Origin: Flavobacteriales bacterium
GTDB taxonomy: Bacteria > Bacteroidota > Bacteroidia > Flavobacteriales_C > GCA-002722245
Assembly: GCA_002722245.1 (NCBI GenBank)
Contig: PBLA01000001.1
Span: 22,292 to 86,291, forward strand
Reading direction: 5' to 3'
DNA: 64,000 nt
The notes under the pieces were generated by a model. The model made no database searches and was not told the origin of the DNA. It worked only from the letters and a program-made list of their open reading frames with translations. A program made the translations under genes and the position numbers. Shown here piece after piece: positions 21,701 to 49,337 of this stretch (positions within the stretch are counted from its first letter, which is position 1; every line of letters starts with the position of its first letter).

Positions 21701-23414
21701 AAACGATTTCAATGTTGTCATAATCTCCTTTCTTTGATTTGGCATTCATCCATTCAAATAATCTGTCTTGAACGGTGACTATTCCTTCTTCAATATTGTA
21801 AATTAGGAATCCTTTTGCGGCTAATCGTACACAAAGTCGTTGAACAGATTGGTAGTCTTTCCGAATATAATTGGCTAAATCAGCATCTTTAAAAGTGCGT
21901 TCTTCAAAGTTTTCGTCCATTACAAATTTCTTAATACTGTATAAAGGGTGTACACTTTGTAAACCTTGCATTTGCATGAATTTGTCGTTGGAAAAGAAAC
22001 TGTTTGATTCCAATCGCATTATACCAGAACTGGATCCCGGTATCGTTAGGAAGTCCATGTAATCCTTGTCAATTTGCCATTTTAACCACTCGATTTCCAT
22101 ATCCATTCTGTGAAAGGTGTTATAATAGGGTGACGCGCCAATTCCTTTCCCTTCGCAATAGAGGGTAAGTTCTCTTTTATTTGTAAGGAATTTCAATTGA
22201 AGGGCAGGATGGAAGATAGAATCCGTGTCAAGTGCCATGGTTATTGCGGCATAACGGGTTGCAATTCTTTTGTCATCAATTTTAAAGGATTGAGATTTTG
22301 CGATGAGAAATGGCTTGCCATGTCGTTTGATGGTGATTTTAGCAAGTTTTCCATCTACGATTTTACCAATGAAGTTTTTTCCTTTGATCATGAATCCTCC
22401 TTCATAATCTAAGCTGTCTTCGATTTCTTCAATTAATACTTTACCTGAATAGGATTCAAAACGAGGATAGGTAGCATTGTTGGTATCCACATTCGCTAAA
22501 AGTTTTTCTTCTAGCTTACCTTTGAGCATGTAGTCAAAGTATTTGGTGTTTTTATAATCTACTGAATCAGCTTTGTATTTAGAGGATTTTAACTCAATTG
22601 TATACTCGCTTAATTCGGCATAAGATTGTTCCTCGGGTATTCCTGCGCGGGTCCATAATACGCGTCCACCTTTTCCTTTCCATTTTCCTGTGGTAGGATA
22701 AAACGCTCCTTTTGTATTGTATATTCTGGCGGTGTCATTTTTTGCCACGCAATACAGATCCATGCGTGGAAAAACAACTTTTGGTAAACTGTCATAATCA
22801 AATGAAAATGTTGGTGAGGTTCCCTGCCATTTTACATTTTGAGTCACGTATACAGAGTTGTATAAAAAGATATTATTACAATTTGTAAGAAATACAGTGA
22901 AATATCGCTTTTTGTCGTCAATGAGCTTATTCACAGTGATATTCCATGCGTCAAAGGAATCTTCTGATTGAAAAGTGGTGAAAAAACTGATTACGGAGTA
23001 GAGGTAAATTTTAAAATCAGGGATGGCTTTCATCCGCTTTTTTAACATCTTATTACACATCATAATAATCATTTGAATTTGGTAGTTGTTCAACTTTCCA
23101 CTTTCAAAACCATAAACAAATGTGCTGGATGCGTTTAATTTCTTGAGTCTTTTTTGATAAACTAAATTGGCAATTTTATATATTTTTTCTTCTTGTTTCG
23201 GTTTTACAAGGTCCATTGGCCAAAGTGCTCTAAATTCGGCCATGATTAAGTCTGCCTCTTCCTCACTGGTTTTTCGAATAAATCCCTCTAATTCTTCAAT
23301 GAATTGCTCTTTATCATTGGAAAATTGCTTAAATGTTTGCCCTTGAAGTCCAAAACAGCAAAGAGCAATTATTGAGGTTATTATTATTTTTTTGTAAAAG
23401 CCAGGCATAACCAA
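18759..23414 (-). CDS. very large (1551 aa) secreted or envelope protein of unknown function
   Basis: Uninterrupted ORF with N-terminal signal/anchor 'KKIIITSIIALCCFGLQGQ'. Composition is rich in K/F/D/N/G and looks beta-rich. No catalytic motif recognised. The start overlaps the prmA 3' end. Confidence 0.8.
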   Translation of the reverse strand: MVMPGFYKKIIITSIIALCCFGLQGQTFKQFSNDKEQFIEELEGFIRKTSEEEADLIMAEFRALWPMDLVKPKQEEKIYKIANLVYQKRLKKLNASSTFVYGFESGKLNNYQIQMIIMMCNKMLKKRMKAIPDFKIYLYSVISFFTTFQSEDSFDAWNITVNKLIDDKKRYFTVFLTNCNNIFLYNSVYVTQNVKWQGTSPTFSFDYDSLPKVVFPRMDLYCVAKNDTARIYNTKGAFYPTTGKWKGKGGRVLWTRAGIPEEQSYAELSEYTIELKSSKYKADSVDYKNTKYFDYMLKGKLEEKLLANVDTNNATYPRFESYSGKVLIEEIEDSLDYEGGFMIKGKNFIGKIVDGKLAKITIKRHGKPFLIAKSQSFKIDDKRIATRYAAITMALDTDSIFHPALQLKFLTNKRELTLYCEGKGIGASPYYNTFHRMDMEIEWLKWQIDKDYMDFLTIPGSSSGIMRLESNSFFSNDKFMQMQGLQSVHPLYSIKKFVMDENFEERTFKDADLANYIRKDYQSVQRLCVRLAAKGFLIYNIEEGIVTVQDRLFEWMNAKSKKGDYDNIEIVSDIKGEANASMNLINYDITLRGVNGVALSRARKTGFIPENQTLKIHRNRAMSFGGIIRSERFEFWGKNFEFNYDDFGIGLNELDSVRLKAGMLDKSKWRTRADGKLQVPITMVRSVIEDISGKLEIDWPFNKSGILSDSFPQYPLFHSDKKSYVRYNKRNLRGKAYDPDKVYFQLDTFTVDSMGTFSDKALNFPGTFYSGGIFPDFREPLKLMPDHSLGFKRKTPPEGYPVYGGKATFYNEINLSNQGLMGDGDFEYITSTTKSNAFVFYLDSMNAPAQSSIIEPQKSGVEYPKVEGQKVNVAYYSSDDYFKMAKREIPMKMYDDKAFMHGVLRYDPKELTGKGRIEFENADLKSQIFEFQNMTFNADTSDFKLKADTLTSEGENGGIAFATNDVNAKIDFIKREGEFLANGGASFVDFPMNKYICFMDKFKWFMDKYELELSSSEKSKKTTDAGAQEGRDDLDLSGSEFISTLPSQDSLRFISPKANYDLRKYIIKAHEVKFINVADARVFTSDGEVEVRKNANMKPLEDAKIIANITTKYHTITKAKVKVIARRDYTAEGDYEYVDGKGKKQLIHFNNVRVDSAYQTVASGDIKEDDKFMLSDHFHFKGTSKIEATKKGMNFRGATYLQHDCKKLAKAWIGFESDIDPANVLIPVEEGIQAWLPGKAKGTKLGSGVLLKVDSTHLYSAFLSPQKYHSDNSLISAHGFLNYNEKEDEYQLSNKEKLRESNFPGNFVALNTQMCSVRGEGKIQLGNEKLGQVNFTNYGVVNHDPFTNGVKVDGALAVDFFLDEKMWTHMLDNMLGNPKLEPVDNTRLVYGKAIREMAGKELGDKLVSELNLYGAFKKVAKEVRHNIMFSDVKMEWDQTTQSFKSQGNKIGIGVIDKKQVNKFVNGHIELVRKKTRERLTIYIEIDEETWYFFDYNNGVMRVISSDAAFNAIITELKPDKREFKGPKEKGPYSFMLGTERSMRKFKSRMSK

Positions 23415-24217
23415 TTCTCTTTATTCAGTTTATTAATAGGGGTTAAGTTGTGTTGGATTGCGCAATCTGAAATTGCGTGTTCATCAAAAAGTAAAAATCC
23501 ACTTAAAACCAATTGTCCTCCTTGTTTTAATATTCTAGCATACTCAGTCATTTGATCCATGAGTATGTTTTTATTGATGTTTGCAAAAACAACATCAAAT
23601 GAACGGTTAGAAATTTGTTCTTTTCCGCCTTTTTTTATGTTCAATTCAACATGGTTATTCTGGGCGTTTTCTATGCAATTTGCTACAGCACCCTCCTCGA
23701 TATCAATAGCCTCTACATATTGCGCTCCCATTTTTTTAGCAAGGATAGCTAATACACCAGTTCCTGTTCCCATGTCCAGAACATCTTTCCCCTTTAAGTT
23801 GATGCACTGCATATTCTGTACCATCATGTAAGTGGTTTCGTGATGCCCAGTCCCAAATGACATTTTGGGTGAAATTTTTACGTAATGCTGAGTATTGTAT
23901 TCACCGCTATGAAACGGGGCAATTATCGCACACCAATCACCTACAATAATTGGTTCAAAGGATGACTCCCAAACTTTATTCCAATTTTCACTAGGAATCT
24001 CTTCCAATATGTAGGAGAGCTTAATTTCCCCTCGATCGCTTAATGCAATGATGAATGATTCCAGTTCAGAAGTGAAATGAATTGAGGGTATGTAAGCATT
24101 AAATCCATTAGGAGTTTCCTCGAAGCTGTCACAGCCTTTTTCTCCAAGTTCATCTATAAATAGATCAACCCAGGGATCCCTGGGTTGAATATTTAATGCT
24201 ATTTTGTGATAGTTCAT
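23384..24217 (-). CDS. prmA: ribosomal protein L11 methyltransferase
   Basis: SAM motif 'VLDMGTGTGVLAI', 'SFGTGHHETT', 'ANI' PrmA pattern. Confidence 0.9.
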   Translation of the reverse strand: MNYHKIALNIQPRDPWVDLFIDELGEKGCDSFEETPNGFNAYIPSIHFTSELESFIIALSDRGEIKLSYILEEIPSENWNKVWESSFEPIIVGDWCAIIAPFHSGEYNTQHYVKISPKMSFGTGHHETTYMMVQNMQCINLKGKDVLDMGTGTGVLAILAKKMGAQYVEAIDIEEGAVANCIENAQNNHVELNIKKGGKEQISNRSFDVVFANINKNILMDQMTEYARILKQGGQLVLSGFLLFDEHAISDCAIQHNLTPINKLNKENWLCLAFTKK

Positions 24218-24978
24218 TAATTGAAAGCAGTGATGATTCCAATGAAGTCTTCTGCTTTCAGTGATGCTCCTCCAATTAAACCTCCGTCTACGTCTTTCTT
24301 TCCAAAAATTTCGGCTGCATTCGATGGCTTACATGATCCACCGTAAAGAATCGGGGTTTCATTTGCGATTCCCTCACCGTATTGTTCAGTAACACAACTT
24401 CTAATAAATGCATGCATATCTTGAGCTTGATCTGGAGAGGCTGTTAAACCTGTTCCAATTGCCCAAACCGGCTCATAAGCAATAACGACTTTAGCAAAAT
24501 CTTCTGCGCTTAAATGAAACAATTCTGCTTCAATTTGACCTCCAACGATTTTGTTTTGTTGTCCACTTTCTCTTTCCTCTTTAACTTCTCCACAGCAGTA
24601 AATAGGTGTGAGTCCTTGTGCAAGAACAGCATCAACTTTTTTTGCAATATCTGTAGAGTTTTCCCCAAAATATTCTCTTCGCTCGGAGTGTCCGATAATG
24701 ACATATCCTACACCAACGCTTTTTAACATCTCTGCTGAAATTTCTCCGGTGTAAGCACCGCTTGCCTCTTGATGAACGTTTTGTGCAGAAACATTTACCG
24801 CTGAACCTCCGGCTGCTTTAACTGCTTCGGATAAGTTTACATAAGGTGGGGATACAACCACCGTTACATCGCTTGCGTCTACTTTTGCTAATTCATTTTT
24901 TAAATCTTCAACCAACTGTACTCCTTCATTTACAGTTTTGTTCATTTTCCAGTTTCCTGCAACAATTTTACGTGCCAT
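24217..24978 (-). CDS. tpiA: triose-phosphate isomerase
   Basis: 'AGNWKMN', 'IIGHSERR', 'AYEPVWAIGTG', 'ILYGGS'. Confidence 0.95.
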   Translation of the reverse strand: MARKIVAGNWKMNKTVNEGVQLVEDLKNELAKVDASDVTVVVSPPYVNLSEAVKAAGGSAVNVSAQNVHQEASGAYTGEISAEMLKSVGVGYVIIGHSERREYFGENSTDIAKKVDAVLAQGLTPIYCCGEVKEERESGQQNKIVGGQIEAELFHLSAEDFAKVVIAYEPVWAIGTGLTASPDQAQDMHAFIRSCVTEQYGEGIANETPILYGGSCKPSNAAEIFGKKDVDGGLIGGASLKAEDFIGIITAFN

Positions 24979-41250: not shown

Positions 41251-42087
41251 TTAAGTCAATGATTTTTTTCTCACCTTTTGCCAACCTAAAACGCTGAAAA
41301 GTCCTAATCCCATTAATACACCAATAGCAGGAACTGTAGGTATATCGAGAAATAGCGCAATAAAGTGACCACAGATACAACTCATAATACCAAAGCAAAC
41401 AGCAATGATCAAAAATGGTTTAAGTTTTTGAGTTATGACATGCGCAAATGATGCAGGTACAACTAATAATCCAATGACCATTATTGCTCCAACACTATCG
41501 AAACTATATACTGTGGAAACGCTTGACAGACCCAAAAGAAGATAGTTCCAAAAAGGAATAGAAATCCCTATAGATTTCGCGTATGCTTGATCAAAGCTGG
41601 TTAATTTAAAGCCTTTCAATCCCAGTAAAACAATAGGAGCTGTGATTAAAGAAATAATAATCAAATTAAAAGTAGGAGTGGGTATTCCCCATGTTTTAGG
41701 AACGATAGGGATCGTGTTAATGTCGCCAAATAAGACGCAGTCCACATCAATATCAGCATTTTTTGCTTGTGAAGTAATGAGTATAATTCCAATTGCAAAA
41801 AGGAGTGTGTAAATAATTCCAATTGAACTATCTTTTCCAAAACCTCCTATTCGATTCAACCACTCAATTAACAAAATAGCGATAATCCCAAATCCACTTG
41901 CACCAAGAAGCATCCAGAAAGAGTTGATTTCACCTGAAATCATAAAAGCAATAACAATACCAGGTAAAACAGCATGAGATAAGGCATCACCAATAAGACT
42001 CATTTTTCGAAGTACAAGAAAACTTCCCAGTAAACTGGAGTTTATGCCGATAATGCATGCAGTGAGTATAATCCAAAAATCAAACAT
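41251..42087 (-). CDS. metal ABC transporter permease (ABC-3/TroD-ZnuB family)
   Basis: 8-9 TM segments. 'GDALSHAVLPGI' is the ABC-3 signature. The start overlaps the upstream stop (TAATG). Confidence 0.88.
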   Translation of the reverse strand: MFDFWIILTACIIGINSSLLGSFLVLRKMSLIGDALSHAVLPGIVIAFMISGEINSFWMLLGASGFGIIAILLIEWLNRIGGFGKDSSIGIIYTLLFAIGIILITSQAKNADIDVDCVLFGDINTIPIVPKTWGIPTPTFNLIIISLITAPIVLLGLKGFKLTSFDQAYAKSIGISIPFWNYLLLGLSSVSTVYSFDSVGAIMVIGLLVVPASFAHVITQKLKPFLIIAVCFGIMSCICGHFIALFLDIPTVPAIGVLMGLGLFSVLGWQKVRKKSLT

Positions 42088-43385
42088 TAGTCTTCGTAAG
42101 GGATATTTTGTTGATGCGGATCGCTCGTTGGCCTCCCCAGTGTTTTTAATAATTCTGTTTCAAGGGATTTAGTCATGATGTGCTCAATGGATTCAGCACT
42201 TTCATGAACATGATCGGATTGTATTTGCATAAACTTTTCCATGTAAAGCTCCCACAATCTATGTATCCTAATAATTCTCTTTGCCTCTGCAATTCCTTTT
42301 TCAGTAAGCGTCCAAGCCCCATTCGCTTCAATTACAAACTTTTTTCTTTTTAAGATACTCAACCCTTTACTGAGATCAAAAGAAGCAAAAGGATGAAAAT
42401 TTTGAATCATTTGAACAGAATAACTTTGATCAAATTGGTTTTTGTGTTCACCTAATTTATACAGCGTTTTTAGGACATTATCCGAGATTATTTTATTTCG
42501 GTTTTGAATCCCCATTATTTTTTTTGTGATTAATCCCTTTCGAGATAGTAATGCGGACAAAATAGCGATGGTGGATAGTACTACAATAATCCAGGGGCCT
42601 GTAGGCATGTCTGGAAACAGATAGGAAACAAAAACACCCAAAATACTGCTTAAAGCTGCAAACGCACCAGACAATAAAATAGATTTTTTAAAGTGGTTGG
42701 TCCAGAAAAATGCAGAAGAGGCAGGAGTAATAATTAATGCACTCATCAGAATTATTCCAACTGTTTGAATTCCAATAGCAGTGCTCACGATAATTAATCC
42801 TGAAATTAGACTTTGAACAAGTTTGTTATTTAAACCAATTGTGTTTGCAAATCCCTGATCAAACAATGCAATTTTGAAGTGTCTATAAAATAAAATAACA
42901 ACCCCTAAAACAAGTCCACATAATCCACAAAAGAGATAGAGGTCTTTTCGAACAATCGTAGCTGCTTTTCCAAACAGAAAATCAGAAAGACCACTCTGCT
43001 GACTATTTCCTGAGTGTTGTATAATACTTAACAAAATAACACCTAAACTAAAGAGCACTGATAAGGCAATTGCAATGGCTGCATCTTTTTTAATTCGTGA
43101 GATTTTTGTTAACCAGTCTACAAGGAATACGGCAATTGCTCCAGCAAACATTCCTCCAGCTATTAAATAAATTGGATTTTTAACCCCAGAGAGCATAAAT
43201 CCTAAACATACACCTGGTAAAACAGAGTGGGAAACGGCATCAACAATTAATGCTTTTTTATTTAAAACAACTAAAACCCCTACAATACCGCACGTAAAAC
43301 CTAAAATTAACGTTCCAAAAAAAACGTTCGAAATATTGGCGTCTTGAAAAGAAAAAAAATAAATAAAATCGTCCCAAAATTTCAT
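42087..43385 (-). CDS. metal ABC transporter permease fused to a C-terminal DtxR/MntR-type repressor domain
   Basis: The first ~300 residues are ABC-3 permease ('VDAVSHSVLPGV'). The last ~130 aa align to the free-standing repressor encoded at 45094-45756: 'IRIHRLWELYMEKFMQIQSDHVHESAESIEHIM...LGRPTSDPHQQNIP' vs 'IRKHRLWEVFLVEKLKFGWDEIHEIAEQLEHIK...LGYPKNDPHGDPIP'. ATG 43385 lies 1 nt after the ATPase stop. Confidence 0.85.
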   Translation of the reverse strand: MKFWDDFIYFFSFQDANISNVFFGTLILGFTCGIVGVLVVLNKKALIVDAVSHSVLPGVCLGFMLSGVKNPIYLIAGGMFAGAIAVFLVDWLTKISRIKKDAAIAIALSVLFSLGVILLSIIQHSGNSQQSGLSDFLFGKAATIVRKDLYLFCGLCGLVLGVVILFYRHFKIALFDQGFANTIGLNNKLVQSLISGLIIVSTAIGIQTVGIILMSALIITPASSAFFWTNHFKKSILLSGAFAALSSILGVFVSYLFPDMPTGPWIIVVLSTIAILSALLSRKGLITKKIMGIQNRNKIISDNVLKTLYKLGEHKNQFDQSYSVQMIQNFHPFASFDLSKGLSILKRKKFVIEANGAWTLTEKGIAEAKRIIRIHRLWELYMEKFMQIQSDHVHESAESIEHIMTKSLETELLKTLGRPTSDPHQQNIPYED

Positions 43386-43386
43386 G

Positions 43387-44172
43387 TTACTCTCGAATTG
43401 GAAATTGTCGTTGTTTGTATACTTCACCCAATTGCTCAAGAATACTCAGATTACCTCCGTAAGTTTTTTGCAGAAGTTCAGTAGTATATACGTCGTTAGT
43501 GGGACCACTCGCAACGATTCGTTTGTTAATAAGAACCATCCAATCAAAATATTCCATTGCAGATTGAAGGTCGTGATGAACAACAAAAATTGTTTTTCCT
43601 TCCTGTTGAAGCGTTAAAAGAAGATCAACAATTGCTTTTTCACTGGCCATATCAACACCAGCAAAAGGCTCATCCATGAAGTACAAATCTGCCTCTTGAG
43701 CCAAAGCTCGGGCAATGAATACACGTTGTTGTTGTCCACCAGAAAGAGCCGAAATATGATGCTTTGCGAAATCCATCATTTTTACTTTTTTAAGCGCATC
43801 AATAGCAATTTGTTTATCCTGTTTTGTTAGGCGTTTGAAAAGACTTTTTTTACCATATCTTCCCATTTCTACAACATCAAGGACAGTTGCAGGAAAATCC
43901 CAGTCAACCGATTCTTTCTGGGGTACATAAGCTATTTTTTGTCGAACCTTTTTTAAAGGTTGATTAAAGATTTTTACATAACCACTTGCTGATGGAACAA
44001 GTTCCATCATGGCTTTTAATAGGGTGGATTTACCCGCACCATTTGGCCCTATAATACCGACCATTTTCCCCTTAGGAATGTTAAAATCCACATTCCATAA
44101 TACGGGTTTATTATTATAGGCAACCGTTAAATCGTGAATTTCAACAATAGCCTCTTCTACATGCTTAATCAT
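43387..44172 (-). CDS. metal ABC transporter ATP-binding protein
   Basis: Walker A 'GPNGAGKST', signature 'LSGGQQQR', Walker B 'LYFMDEP'. Confidence 0.92.
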   Translation of the reverse strand: MIKHVEEAIVEIHDLTVAYNNKPVLWNVDFNIPKGKMVGIIGPNGAGKSTLLKAMMELVPSASGYVKIFNQPLKKVRQKIAYVPQKESVDWDFPATVLDVVEMGRYGKKSLFKRLTKQDKQIAIDALKKVKMMDFAKHHISALSGGQQQRVFIARALAQEADLYFMDEPFAGVDMASEKAIVDLLLTLQQEGKTIFVVHHDLQSAMEYFDWMVLINKRIVASGPTNDVYTTELLQKTYGGNLSILEQLGEVYKQRQFPIRE

Positions 44173-45092
44173 TTGCTTAATGCGCTAACAATTGTTTGGG
44201 TATTTTTTTTAATCATTTTAATGTAGGTTTCTGCACCACTTTGAGCATCACCTAAACCATCGCTGTAGAGCGTTCCACCAATTTTTAGGTCTAGTCCTTT
44301 TGATCGGCACCCTTCAATGATTGCATTGATATTTTTTCTAGAAACAGAATTTTCTATGAAAATGGCAGGGATTTTTCTACTTACTATAAGATCAGTTAAT
44401 TCTGTTATTCCGCGAACAGAAATATCGGATGCGGTTGATATACCTTGTACACCTTTTACTTCAATACCAAATGCTCGTCCATAATATCCGAATGCATCGT
44501 GCGCTGTAATCAACACCCTAATTGAATCAGGTATTTTATTCATTTCACGTTTAACATAAAGTTCAGTGGCTAATAATTTTTTTGTGTAGGATTTTGTTGC
44601 AGAATCAATATAGTTTTGATGAATAGGGAATTTTTTGGAAAATTCTTTTCCTACAAGTTCTACGGATGTTGCAAATAAATTAACATCATGCCAAAAATGT
44701 GGGTCATGAGCTGTTCCAAACTCTGTAGTTGCTCTTAATCTTTCCTCAGGTACAATTTCTCCGAGTTTAACCACATGACGAGATTTTCCTATTTCATCAA
44801 TAGCATCCAGCAAGTTAGATTCAAAGTGAATACCATTACAGGCAACAGATTCTGCGTTTAACATCGCTTTCATTTCAGATGCTTTACTCTTGTAGGTATG
44901 GGGGTCAACTCCAGGACCCATTAATGCTTCGATTTCAAAGGGTGTAGGAGGAAGGATGTTCTTCATAGCATCAGCAATTACACCTGTTGTACAAATTACA
45001 TGAACGCTCGAAGATGACATCTTATTTTCATGCGATGAACATCCAATTATAATAAGAATGGAAAGAAGGGGAAGATAAAGCAGGTTTTTCAT
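44169..45092 (-). CDS. metal ABC transporter substrate-binding lipoprotein (TroA/ZnuA/PsaA cluster A-I)
   Basis: Lipobox 'IIIGC'. Metal-ligand contexts 'GVDPHTY' and 'DPHFWHD'; 'AHDAFGY'. ATG 45092 lies 1 nt after the repressor stop. Confidence 0.88.
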   Translation of the reverse strand: MKNLLYLPLLSILIIIGCSSHENKMSSSSVHVICTTGVIADAMKNILPPTPFEIEALMGPGVDPHTYKSKASEMKAMLNAESVACNGIHFESNLLDAIDEIGKSRHVVKLGEIVPEERLRATTEFGTAHDPHFWHDVNLFATSVELVGKEFSKKFPIHQNYIDSATKSYTKKLLATELYVKREMNKIPDSIRVLITAHDAFGYYGRAFGIEVKGVQGISTASDISVRGITELTDLIVSRKIPAIFIENSVSRKNINAIIEGCRSKGLDLKIGGTLYSDGLGDAQSGAETYIKMIKKNTQTIVSALSK

Positions 45093-45093
45093 A

Positions 45094-45756
45094 TTATTTT
45101 TCTTTGGAAACATTAAGGTTTTTAGCCACTAATTCTGAAAATGTCCGTTCAGTTTTTTGATTGACCAAAACTTTTAAGGACTTGTCAAATTGAAAGAAAT
45201 CTAAAATTTCAATGGATGAACCCAGTTTGAGGTCGATACTATCTAAATATCTTAAGAAATCTTTGGAGTCTTCAGAGACACCAATTAAAATTGATTTTTC
45301 ACCAATTGATAAATCATTTAATTTGTATTTTTTTAGAGTATGAAACTCGCCTTTTTTGTTTGGAATGGGATCACCATGAGGATCGTTTTTTGGATATCCC
45401 AAGTGCTCGTCCAATTTATCAATAAGTTTTGCGGATTTAATGTGCTCCAATTGCTCAGCAATTTCATGAATTTCATCCCATCCGAATTTAAGTTTCTCTA
45501 CCAAAAAAACTTCCCACAAACGATGTTTTCTTATTACATGTAATGCAATTTGTTCACCTTCTTTTGAAAGTGTTGTTCCTTGATATTTTATATAGTTTAC
45601 TAAACCTTTGTCGGCCAATTTTTTTACCATATCGGATACCGAGGAAGCTTTTGTAGAGAGCTCTTCAGCAATTGCATTGGTGGAAACTCCTTCTTTTGAT
45701 GGTCCGCTTAACTTAAAAATTGCTTTTAGATAATCTTCGGTGGTACTGGTTTGCAT
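45094..45756 (-). CDS. DtxR/MntR-family metal-dependent transcriptional repressor with C-terminal FeoA/SH3-like domain
   Basis: wHTH 'TEDYLKAIFKL...TNAIAEELSTKASSVSDMVKKL', dimerisation/metal region 'HRLWEVFL...IHEIAEQLEH', 'DPHGDPIP', then an SH3-like tail. Confidence 0.9.
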   Translation of the reverse strand: MQTSTTEDYLKAIFKLSGPSKEGVSTNAIAEELSTKASSVSDMVKKLADKGLVNYIKYQGTTLSKEGEQIALHVIRKHRLWEVFLVEKLKFGWDEIHEIAEQLEHIKSAKLIDKLDEHLGYPKNDPHGDPIPNKKGEFHTLKKYKLNDLSIGEKSILIGVSEDSKDFLRYLDSIDLKLGSSIEILDFFQFDKSLKVLVNQKTERTFSELVAKNLNVSKEK

Positions 45757-45783
45757 TTACTCTAAGATTTAGACAAAGATAAA

Positions 45784-45791
45784 CAAATTTA
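45784..45791 (-). promoter_or_regulatory. -7 promoter box TAAATTTG (minus strand) of the metal-uptake operon
   Basis: Plus-strand caaattta. 27 nt upstream of ATG 45756. Overlaps the palindrome at 45787-45804. Confidence 0.5.
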
Positions 45792-45804
45792 GACTTGTCT
45801 AAAT
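45787..45804. promoter_or_regulatory. candidate DtxR/MntR operator: perfect 8-2-8 palindrome ATTTAGAC-TT-GTCTAAAT
   Basis: Perfect inverted repeat read directly from the sequence. An extra ATTTAGAC half-site lies at 45767-45774, 20 nt away. Confidence 0.55.
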
Positions 45805-45934
45805 ACCGTGTTTGGTGTAACTAAAAATATTGGCAAACAGTTGTTTTAGCTGTTTTTTATAGAAATCGATGATAAAATATATTTAGTTCGTAGTTTCTTT
45901 TTTTGAAATCTGAATTTGGTTAACTTAGAAAGTA

Positions 45935-46342
45935 ATGAAAAAGCTTCTTTTTTTGGTGCTTACTCTTACAGTTTTAGGTTGCACGAATAATAATGGTACG
46001 GTATTATGGAGAGTTTGGTATGCTGTTCAGGTACCGCCTAATTACGATTTGAAAATCACCTACAATTCGGATAAGTTTTTTGATTCGGGCGTGCATGATA
46101 CGATTTATGTTCATGACAGTAGCTATGTACAGCAATTAGATGGTTTTTGGATCGGTCAACGCCTTCAAGAGAACAAAGAACATGGCTATTATATAAATAT
46201 TAAAATTGATTCCTTAACACCTTATGATGGTCATTTAGGTGTATTTGTATATGCGAATGATACATCTTTACTGGATTCTGTTTTATATCCATATGGAAGA
46301 AAAGAAATCACCCTTCAAGGTGATATTCCAATCAATTTTTAA
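45935..46342 (+). CDS. hypothetical lipoprotein
   Basis: Lipobox 'LTVLGC'. No family recognised. Confidence 0.5.
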   Translation: MKKLLFLVLTLTVLGCTNNNGTVLWRVWYAVQVPPNYDLKITYNSDKFFDSGVHDTIYVHDSSYVQQLDGFWIGQRLQENKEHGYYINIKIDSLTPYDGHLGVFVYANDTSLLDSVLYPYGRKEITLQGDIPINF

Positions 46343-48608: not shown

Positions 48609-49337
48609 ATGGAAAATTTATTTTTAACAGCAACTTTAGAAGCGGGGGACTATGTAGGGTTTACCTTCTTCATCGGTAGTATGGCCATGCTAGCCGCTAC
48701 TGTATTTTTCTTTCTAGAAATGAAATCAGTTTCTGGAAAGTGGAGAACGTCACTATTGGTGTCGGGATTAATTACATTTATTGCCGCAGTGCATTATTAT
48801 TACATGCGGGATTTCTGGGTGGAAAACAAAACCTCACCAACAGAATTTCGATATATTGACTGGATTCTAACGGTTCCTTTGATGTGTGTTGAATTCTATT
48901 TAATTCTTAAAGCATTTGGAGCAAAAAAAGGGTTGCTTTGGAAAATGATTTTTTACTCGGTATGGATGTTAGTTACCGGTTATTTAGGTGAAACCGTTTT
49001 CAGAGAATCAAGCGCAACTTGGGGTGCCATTTCAACAATTGGTTATTTAGGTATATTTTATGAAGTATGGTTTGGATCTGCTAAGCAACTATCCAACAAT
49101 TCAAACAATCCTACTCTACAAAAAGCGTTTAGTGCACTTGCATGGTTTATTTTTGCAGGATGGGCTATTTATCCAATTGGATACATGACAATTCCAGGTG
49201 GGTTATTAAGTGGAGCATTACCTGCGGAATCAATGGATATCATTTATAACATTGGTGATGCAATTAACAAAATTGGATTTGGATTGGTTATTTATAGTTT
49301 AGCGATAAATAGCACAAATGAAACCTCTGCTGCATAA
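48609..49337 (+). CDS. proteorhodopsin (light-driven H+ pump, DTE motif, Met at tuning position 105)
   Basis: 7 TM segments. 'FRYIDWILTVPLMCVEFYLIL' gives R94/D97/T101/M105/E108 (green PR numbering). 'AVHYYYMR' gives H75. 'IGDAINKIGFG' gives D227/N230/K231 (Schiff-base Lys). Confidence 0.93.
   Translation: MENLFLTATLEAGDYVGFTFFIGSMAMLAATVFFFLEMKSVSGKWRTSLLVSGLITFIAAVHYYYMRDFWVENKTSPTEFRYIDWILTVPLMCVEFYLILKAFGAKKGLLWKMIFYSVWMLVTGYLGETVFRESSATWGAISTIGYLGIFYEVWFGSAKQLSNNSNNPTLQKAFSALAWFIFAGWAIYPIGYMTIPGGLLSGALPAESMDIIYNIGDAINKIGFGLVIYSLAINSTNETSAA

Follow-up and report, generated by a model that had tools for sequence, protein, structure and literature searches.

A conserved promoter palindrome as the probable operator of a DtxR-family metalloregulator in Bacteroidota

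The 64,000-nucleotide (nt) stretch of the Flavobacteriales bacterium contig PBLA01000001.1 analyzed here (the window, within which all positions are numbered) contains, at 45787-45804, the 18-base-pair (bp) inverted repeat ATTTAGACTTGTCTAAAT, which lies in the probable core promoter of a minus-strand metal-uptake operon whose first gene encodes a DtxR-family regulator. An earlier note on this DNA had put the palindrome forward as a candidate operator of that adjacent DtxR/MntR-family repressor in an autoregulatory arrangement, and the comparative analysis described below favors the same conclusion. With a probability of about 0.85, the palindrome serves as main operator (O1) for the adjacent manganese-type, TroR/SloR/DR2539-like repressor, which would repress both its own gene and the TroA-type importer encoded behind it. 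The palindrome, very probably an operator of this DtxR-family repressor, is conserved across the phylum Bacteroidota.

Read directly, the palindrome has an 8-2-8 organization (ATTTAGAC-TT-GTCTAAAT, or ATTTAG-ACTTGT-CTAAAT in 6-6-6 notation), with arms that are exact reverse complements and a central TT that is not self-complementary. The 220-amino-acid (aa) regulator is encoded 31 nt downstream, with the minus-strand ATG of its open reading frame (ORF) at 45756, and a further copy of ATTTAGAC is present at 45767-45774, 20 nt from the palindrome's same-orientation arm; all of these coordinates had been given correctly in the earlier note. By chance statistics alone the palindrome is unremarkable. 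In this window of 35% G+C there are seven perfect 8-2-8 inverted repeats (21 if spacers of 0-6 are allowed), the 8-mer ATTTAGAC occurs four times against 3.4 expected, and the motif pattern with up to three mismatches is expected about once by chance. Rarity was therefore dropped as an argument for function, which has to be judged by context and conservation.

Conservation was assessed in 160 loci encoding relatives of the regulator, 80 listed from species-representative genomes and 80 from metagenomes. The species-representative loci (at least 80, among the matches listed) encode proteins of 50-61% identity, are all from Bacteroidota and span Flavobacteriales, Sphingobacteriales, Cytophagales, Saprospiraceae and Chitinophagales, and the 80 metagenome loci include 12 close relatives with 71-86% protein identity. 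Gene starts were assigned by tblastn, and the counted set comprises the 123 loci with at least 49% identity (49-86%) and usable upstream sequence. When the 250 nt upstream of the regulator gene were searched with the pattern TTTAGAY-NN-RTCTAAA, the motif was found in 93 of the 123 loci with at most one mismatch and in 109 with at most two; the palindrome is thus present in orthologous promoters phylum-wide. At the stricter threshold, the 30 kb of upstream sequence hold 95 sites, compared with six in the other 676 kb of the loci, and when these AT-rich upstream zones were resampled with a first-order Markov model, 0.10 sites were expected and the maximum was one.

In the remaining 57.7 kb of intergenic DNA from these loci there are five motif sites, all from loci without a proximal site. 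Three of them (L070, L075 and L076) lie ahead of an Nramp gene, itself the immediate same-strand upstream neighbor of the regulator, and so mark the start of the operon; the Nramp protein in these loci is a fusion to a universal stress protein. The other two (Pontibacter L026:1782 and L030:1837) are the only good copies in their loci and lie upstream of a FabH-like (KAS III-like) gene, which precedes the regulator on the same strand and would not be expected at the head of a metal operon.

A symmetrized matrix built from 102 unique orthologous sites, with the window left out, has the consensus ATTTTTAGAC-WW-GTCTAAAAAT and an information content of 25.7 bits, TTTAG and CTAAA being 98-99% invariant. 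Scored with this matrix, the window palindrome reaches 20.5 bits and is the sole match above 5 bits, the runner-up among the ~64,000 window positions scoring 4.7; with no other match exceeding that value, no additional regulon members were identified within the 64-kb window. Distant homologues (38-46% identity, some on G+C-rich contigs) keep TTAG-N6-CTAA upstream, as in TTTTTAGGCACTCCTAAATTT and GTTAGCCATATCTAAC. In the alignment of the window with its close relatives, the intergenic flanks cannot be aligned even at 77-86% protein identity, and the columns of the site are invariant. It is this conservation upstream of orthologous regulators, and not the rarity of the palindrome, that argues for its function as an operator.

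Bacteroidota promoters are characterized by a TAnnTTTG element at -7 and a TTTG element at -33, with a spacing of ~19 nt, as established in promoter studies of Bacteroides fragilis and Flavobacterium johnsoniae. The window promoter contains two adjacent TAnnTTTG matches, TATCTTTG and TAAATTTG. Across the loci, the distance from the palindrome center to TAnnTTTG is sharply bimodal, with 29 loci, the window among them, at 13-17 nt and 69 at 32-36 nt, and in 66 of 110 loci the palindrome occupies the spacer immediately preceding the -7 box of one flanking gene, the others abutting the -33 element. Each of the 12 close relatives has TATCTTTG, TACCTTTG or TATATTTR (TAYMTTTR) at the position of TATCTTTG, at a distance of 16-18 nt from the ATG, and its TA..TTT columns are invariant in the alignment of the 13 close sequences. 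Because TATCTTTG belongs to a conserved distance class and is aligned in the relatives, neither of which holds for TAAATTTG, the probable -7 box is that at 45774-45781; the palindrome would then fill the -33/-7 spacer, spanning roughly -33 to -17.

The earlier note had instead assigned the -7 box to TAAATTTG (45791-45784). In this arrangement the operator would be the same, the -7 box would overlap its arm, transcription would start near 45780 and the additional half-site would fall in the 5' leader. As sequence the assignment is correct (the reverse complement of 45784-45791 is TAAATTTG, with a 5-nt overlap with the arm), the match to TAnnTTTG is perfect, and both boxes are available in this genome. 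However, a box 4 nt from the palindrome center is found in the window only and in none of the 109 other loci, compared with 28 others that have one at 13-17 nt, and the close relatives read TAAATTTA, TAAATTTT or TAAAATTG at the position of TAAATTTG while keeping their TATCTTTG-type boxes. We thus consider the overlapping geometry improbable. A sigma-70 promoter and terminator scan of 45650-46000 returned two weak plus-strand matches and no terminator, and is uninformative for a Bacteroidota promoter. Over the whole window, TAnnTTTG is under-represented (65 matches versus 96 ± 9 in shuffles, with 100 of 100 shuffles higher), as anticipated for a signal kept out of non-promoter DNA.

The regulator combines a winged-helix DNA-binding domain (PF01325), a metal-binding and dimerization domain (PF02742) and an FeoA/SH3-like domain (PF04023), and a protein identical to it is recorded from marine Flavobacteriales metagenome-assembled genomes (MAGs). 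Among its 33 solved homologues, the top matches are 5zr4, SloR, DR2539, ScaR and 6o5c (E = 2e-40 to 1e-26), of which we take 5zr4 to be Mycobacterium tuberculosis MntR and 6o5c to be MtsR; IdeR and DtxR match more weakly than this Mn-sensor group (E = 1e-15 to 1e-11). In a BLASTP alignment with DtxR, the reference sequence of which was verified against PDB 1bi0, Asp8 of the regulator stands opposite Met10 and Glu101 opposite Cys102, Glu104 and His105 are paired with Glu105 and His106, and His78, Glu82 and His97 stand opposite His79, Glu83 and His98. Mn and Fe sensors are told apart by Asp or Asn in place of Met10 together with Glu in place of Cys102 (PMC11672702). Judged by these aligned residues, the regulator carries the manganese-type signature of the Mn-sensing branch (MntR/SloR/ScaR/TroR/DR2539).

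The Mn sensor DR2539 of Deinococcus radiodurans has been crystallized as one dimer on the quasi-palindrome ATTTTAGTCGCGCCTAAAAT from the promoter of dr1709 (Nramp) (PDB 8pvt, 8pvz and 8pw0); binding is lost on mutation of the TTTAG thymines and adenine, and the wing residue Tyr59 is placed in the minor groove. Its operator, which controls a Mn importer, has the same TTTAG-N6-CTAAA (6-6-6) form with AT-rich outer flanks, and the bases that are critical in it are the invariant ones in the Bacteroidota motif. DR2539 is also the third-best solved homologue of the regulator (E = 6e-31), and its wing tyrosine is kept as Tyr58 in the window regulator and is invariant in the regulator alignment. The two systems differ in the inner six bases (the GC-rich TCGCGC, compared with ACTTGT in the window and AC-WW-GT in the Bacteroidota consensus) and in the recognition turn (A-P-A in DR2539 and K-A-S in the window regulator), two differences that appear to fit one another. 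They differ further in that DR2539 acts on a sigma-70 promoter in place of the -33/-7 type, and that in the window the regulator gene itself would be the first to be controlled.

SloR of Streptococcus mutans, the second-best solved homologue, recognizes 6-6-6 elements of the form AATTAA-N6-TTAATT, three of which, 4 bp apart, occupy 72 bp over the -35/-10 region of sloABC, and two of which act cooperatively at mntH; its homodimers repress the Mn ABC importer by promoter exclusion. The arrangement of two to three such repeats in tandem, ~22 bp from center to center across the core promoter, is paralleled by the three-site array of the close clade described below. In contrast, the hexamers differ (AATTAA versus ATTTAG), sloR lies downstream of sloABC whereas the window regulator is encoded first, and only one of the three sites in the window is strong. 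The operators of Treponema TroR are 18-bp dyads near or over the tro promoter, as O1 appears to be, and the tro operon (troABCDR) contains the same gene set as the window operon. As the window binding protein is closest to TroA, the operon can be described as tro-like with the regulator placed first, whereas in Treponema the regulator comes last; the first permease of the window also has an additional DtxR-type domain.

DtxR of Corynebacterium diphtheriae shares family and fold with the regulator, and its 19-bp tox-type box TTAGGTTAGCCTAACCTAA holds TTAG-N6-CTAA twice, at a 5-bp offset. DtxR binds as two dimers on one such box, as seen in DtxR- and IdeR-DNA structures, whereas the window site looks like a single-dimer 18-bp site; moreover, DtxR senses Fe(II) and has Met10 and Cys102 where the window regulator has Asp and Glu. 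Within the same phylum, PgMntR (PG1044) of Porphyromonas gingivalis is the only biochemically characterized DtxR-family regulator that we found. It binds DNA from the promoter region of a gene for a Mn transporter, with binding enhanced by Mn(II), and differs from the window regulator in its twin FeoA domains and in Cys108 at the primary site; it falls outside the 160 loci. The PgMntR paper defines no operator sequence (the words palindrome, operator and footprint are absent from it), and no published Bacteroidota MntR/DtxR operator or description of the motif was found, which, given incomplete literature coverage, is weak evidence of absence. With TTTAG-N6-CTAAA shared with DR2539, the 6-6-6 design shared with SloR and TTAG-N6-CTAA contained in the DtxR box, the motif is, at the level of sequence, the Bacteroidota version of a family-wide design and not a new kind of operator, contrary to the suggestion of the earlier note that it may be lineage-specific.

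Throughout the loci, the motif tracks the regulator gene and no particular transporter. Its partners, all with metal-acquisition functions, are a divergent TonB-dependent receptor (49 loci), a downstream ZIP transporter (41), a ZnuA-type ATP-binding cassette (ABC) transporter (33), an Nramp-universal stress protein fusion (18) and a second, membrane-anchored DtxR-like paralogue (9). As the only constant among the loci, the regulator is the most economical candidate for the palindrome-binding protein. A different binder, of the Fur/Zur family or another winged-helix type, would leave the association with the DtxR gene as a matter of a shared metal regulon only; Fur or Zur frequently controls metal-uptake operons, and some of the related loci have the DtxR-like paralogue beside the regulator. 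This possibility is nevertheless very unlikely: the motif follows the regulator gene whatever the neighboring transporter, also among the distant homologues of 38-46% identity with their TTAG-N6-CTAA; the TTTAG-N6-CTAAA form is proven for a homologous Mn sensor (DR2539); and the window operon contains no second soluble regulator.

The DtxR-like paralogue lies directly downstream of the regulator (loci L031, L046, L065, L103, L106, L107, L108, L122 and L123) and comprises ~340 aa with an N-terminal hydrophobic segment, PF02742 and FeoA, no PF01325 being detected in it. In loci of the Sphingobacteriales type (L013, L033, L035, L041, L052, L079 and others), the regulator is followed by the Nramp-universal stress protein fusion, which is 623 aa long.

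The TonB-dependent receptor (~757 aa, with CarboxypepD_reg, Plug and barrel domains) is encoded on the opposite strand in L003, L006, L012, L021, L031, L050 and 43 other loci, and has its own -7 box 16-17 nt from the palindrome center. That the palindrome is shared with this divergent gene suggests a metal-regulated step of uptake across the outer membrane. In the window, the divergent upstream gene (45935-46342, plus strand) starts ~130 nt from the palindrome, and its product of 135 aa is a predicted lipoprotein that matches no Pfam family; elsewhere the upstream neighbor of the regulator belongs to other protein clusters, the TonB-dependent receptor being the most frequent (49 loci).

The distance classes bear on whether the site could serve activation, with the metal-bound regulator recruiting RNA polymerase, or a dual function. 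In the 69 loci of the distant class, 32-36 nt separate the palindrome center from the regulator's -7 box downstream of it; the center is then at roughly -45 relative to the start, where activation would be feasible. Within the family, IdeR activates iron-storage genes (PMC11672702), which provides a precedent. On the other hand, the window site lies inside the probable core promoter, with ~14 nt between its center and the -7 box that follows, and the genes that it would control are uptake genes, which this family represses; furthermore, 36 loci of the distant class have a divergent TAnnTTTG box 16-17 nt from the palindrome center on the opposite side, where a bound protein would be placed to repress the divergent gene. 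An activating or dual role at the window site is thus hardly to be expected. That the palindrome is a functionless AT-rich inverted repeat can be practically dismissed, since the seven perfect 8-2-8 repeats of the window and the unexceptional 8-mer count stand against 95 sites where 0.1 are expected, at a fixed promoter position across the phylum, and against site columns that stay invariant amid unalignable intergenic DNA.

Tandem sites were analyzed upstream of the regulator gene in the window and its 12 close relatives (13 sequences, alignable only in a few blocks). The proximal site is present in all 13, its center lying between -36 and -40 relative to the ATG. A distal site centered at -59 to -63 scores at least 3.2 bits in 10 of the 12 relatives and 24-27 bits in L087, L089 and L090, and its left arm, TTTT(T)AG, is kept in the close-clade alignment. 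In the window this site (O2) is decayed, and at -6.8 bits it was rejected as a functional operator. A third site (O3) has two mismatches to TTTAGAYNNRTCTAAA and, with 3.7 bits, is the fourth-best match in the window; its left arm is supplied by TTTATCT of the -7 box and its right arm, G(T/C)CTAAAT, is the half-site at 45767-45774. The earlier note had recorded the latter as a third half-site; it is indeed present 20 nt away, but is better described as one arm of the weak full site TTTATCTTTGTCTAAA. Sites at the O3 position (-18/-19), scoring 3.3-10.2 bits, are kept in five of the 12 close relatives (L093, L083, L089, L090 and L092), and the spacing in the array is 23 bp between the distal and proximal sites and 19-21 bp between the proximal and third sites. 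An exact RTCTAAA half-site between the main site and the ATG occurs in 13 of 110 loci, compared with 4.4 in shuffles (maximum 10 in 500 shuffles), an excess that comes partly from loci where the scan took the distal site as the main one. O3 is thus plausible as a third site but not established.

If the palindrome is O1, then in a metal-sufficient cytoplasm one metal-loaded dimer, with Mn(II) as the most likely co-repressor, would occupy ATTTAG-N6-CTAAAT in the -33/-7 spacer (with TATCTTTG as the -7 box) and exclude RNA polymerase. The whole operon, comprising the regulator, the TroA-like binding protein, the ATPase and the two permeases, would then be switched off. When metal is scarce, the apo-protein would leave the DNA and the operon, including the regulator gene, would be transcribed, resulting in negative autoregulation. 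Binding may become cooperative, as in SloR, through the weak O3 located 20 bp downstream over the likely start and the -7 box; the site 23 bp upstream, intact in relatives, appears to have decayed in this genome. Mn is favored as the effector metal by a modest margin of confidence, with Fe or Zn as the possible alternatives. The partner genes in the relatives (Nramp, ZIP, TroA-type ABC and TonB-dependent receptor) fit Mn without proving it as the effector.

Several observations weigh against this scheme. Between 9 and 14 of the 123 loci have no recognizable site. The two adjacent TAnnTTTG matches leave the transcription start ambiguous, and the -7/-33 assignments rest on the consensus of Bacteroides and Flavobacterium promoters. 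The location of the site 32-36 nt from the regulator's -7 box in 69 loci could suit activation. With regard to the metal, the TroR of Treponema denticola responds to both Mn and Fe (PMC2628430), and the metal preference of TroA, the protein closest to the window binding protein, is debated (Zn, Mn or Fe), so that the identity of the metal is uncertain.

The coordinates of the promoter elements and of the operon genes are collected in Table 1. The tro-type gene set is complete, with a TroA-like cluster A-I binding protein, an ATPase, two ABC-3 permeases and the DtxR-like repressor, and the reading frames, all on the minus strand, overlap or abut. The best solved match of the binding protein is TroA of Treponema pallidum (1toa, E = 3e-64).

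Table 1. Promoter elements and genes of the metal-uptake operon in the window.
Feature	Position	Strand	Remarks
Proximal operator O1 (candidate)	45787-45804		Perfect 8-2-8 palindrome; matrix score 20.5 bits; aligned in all close relatives
Probable -7 box TATCTTTG, TAnnTTTG type	45774-45781	-	17 nt upstream of ATG; start 14 nt from palindrome center
-7 box TAAATTTG of the earlier note, probably fortuitous	45784-45791	-	Palindrome arm plus TTG; 4 nt from center
O2, decayed distal operator remnant TTTTTAGTTACACCAAAC	45810-45827	minus-strand reading	~22-23 bp upstream of O1; best score -6.8 bits
O3, weak third site TTTATCTTTGTCTAAA	45768-45783	minus-strand reading	Overlaps -7 box and likely start region; center 20 bp from O1 center
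DtxR-family metalloregulator, 220 aa	45094-45756	-	First operon gene; Pfam PF01325, PF02742, PF04023
TroA-like metal-binding lipoprotein, ZnuA family	44169-45113	-	Pfam PF01297; start overlaps regulator stop by 20 nt
ABC transporter ATPase	43387-44172	-	Pfam PF00005; 4-nt overlap with preceding gene
ABC-3 permease with C-terminal DtxR-type metal-binding/dimerization domain	42087-43439	-	PF00950 (residues 33-297), PF02742 (379-447)
Second ABC-3 permease	41251-42087	-	Last operon gene; Pfam PF00950

Two further features of the window lie apart from the operon. A perfect 22-bp G+C-rich palindrome, CAACCCAGGGATCCCTGGGTTG, is present at 24166-24187, at the junction of the minus-strand ORFs 23384-24217 and 24217-24978. 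A proteorhodopsin-type gene (48609-49337, plus strand; Bac_rhodopsin, E = 3e-44) is located 3 kb from the operon and fits a marine photoheterotrophic flavobacterium.

The fusion of a DtxR-type metal-sensing domain to the first permease is the most interesting by-product of the analysis. The C-terminal PF02742 domain of the permease is 41% identical to that of the regulator and keeps the HRLWE and H-x3-E-x2-E-H motifs, and no DNA-binding domain was detected in the 77-aa linker, even at E values up to 1. Among the TroA-type operons of the set whose permease is at least 45% identical and whose ORF extends that far (L081, L082, L086, L087, L089, L092, L001, L028, L026, L030 and L110), which belong to several Bacteroidota orders, all have the fusion; it is absent from a second operon type with permeases of 345-375 aa, and a literature search on permease-DtxR fusions gave nothing relevant. 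A speculative and rather doubtful extension would be a two-level metal sensor of which the operator is one half. In such a sensor, the membrane-tethered domain, on the cytoplasmic C-terminus of the permease, could gate the transporter directly in response to cytoplasmic metal or, alternatively, could form mixed dimers with the soluble repressor, coupling the occupancy of O1 and O3 to the abundance of the transporter. Separately, and with the same reservation, the phylum-wide motif would define a Mn regulon of Bacteroidota with its own TonB-dependent outer-membrane receptor.

In practical terms, the analysis yields an operator model for the Mn-type DtxR regulator (ATTTTTAGAC-WW-GTCTAAAAAT, about 26 bits) that can be applied throughout the Bacteroidota; its matrix allows Mn and metal-uptake regulons to be predicted in marine Flavobacteriia and in other Bacteroidota genomes and MAGs. 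The result does not change the understanding of how such repressors work and will not surprise the specialist; it illustrates how a DtxR-family site would fit into the unusual -33/-7 promoter of the phylum.

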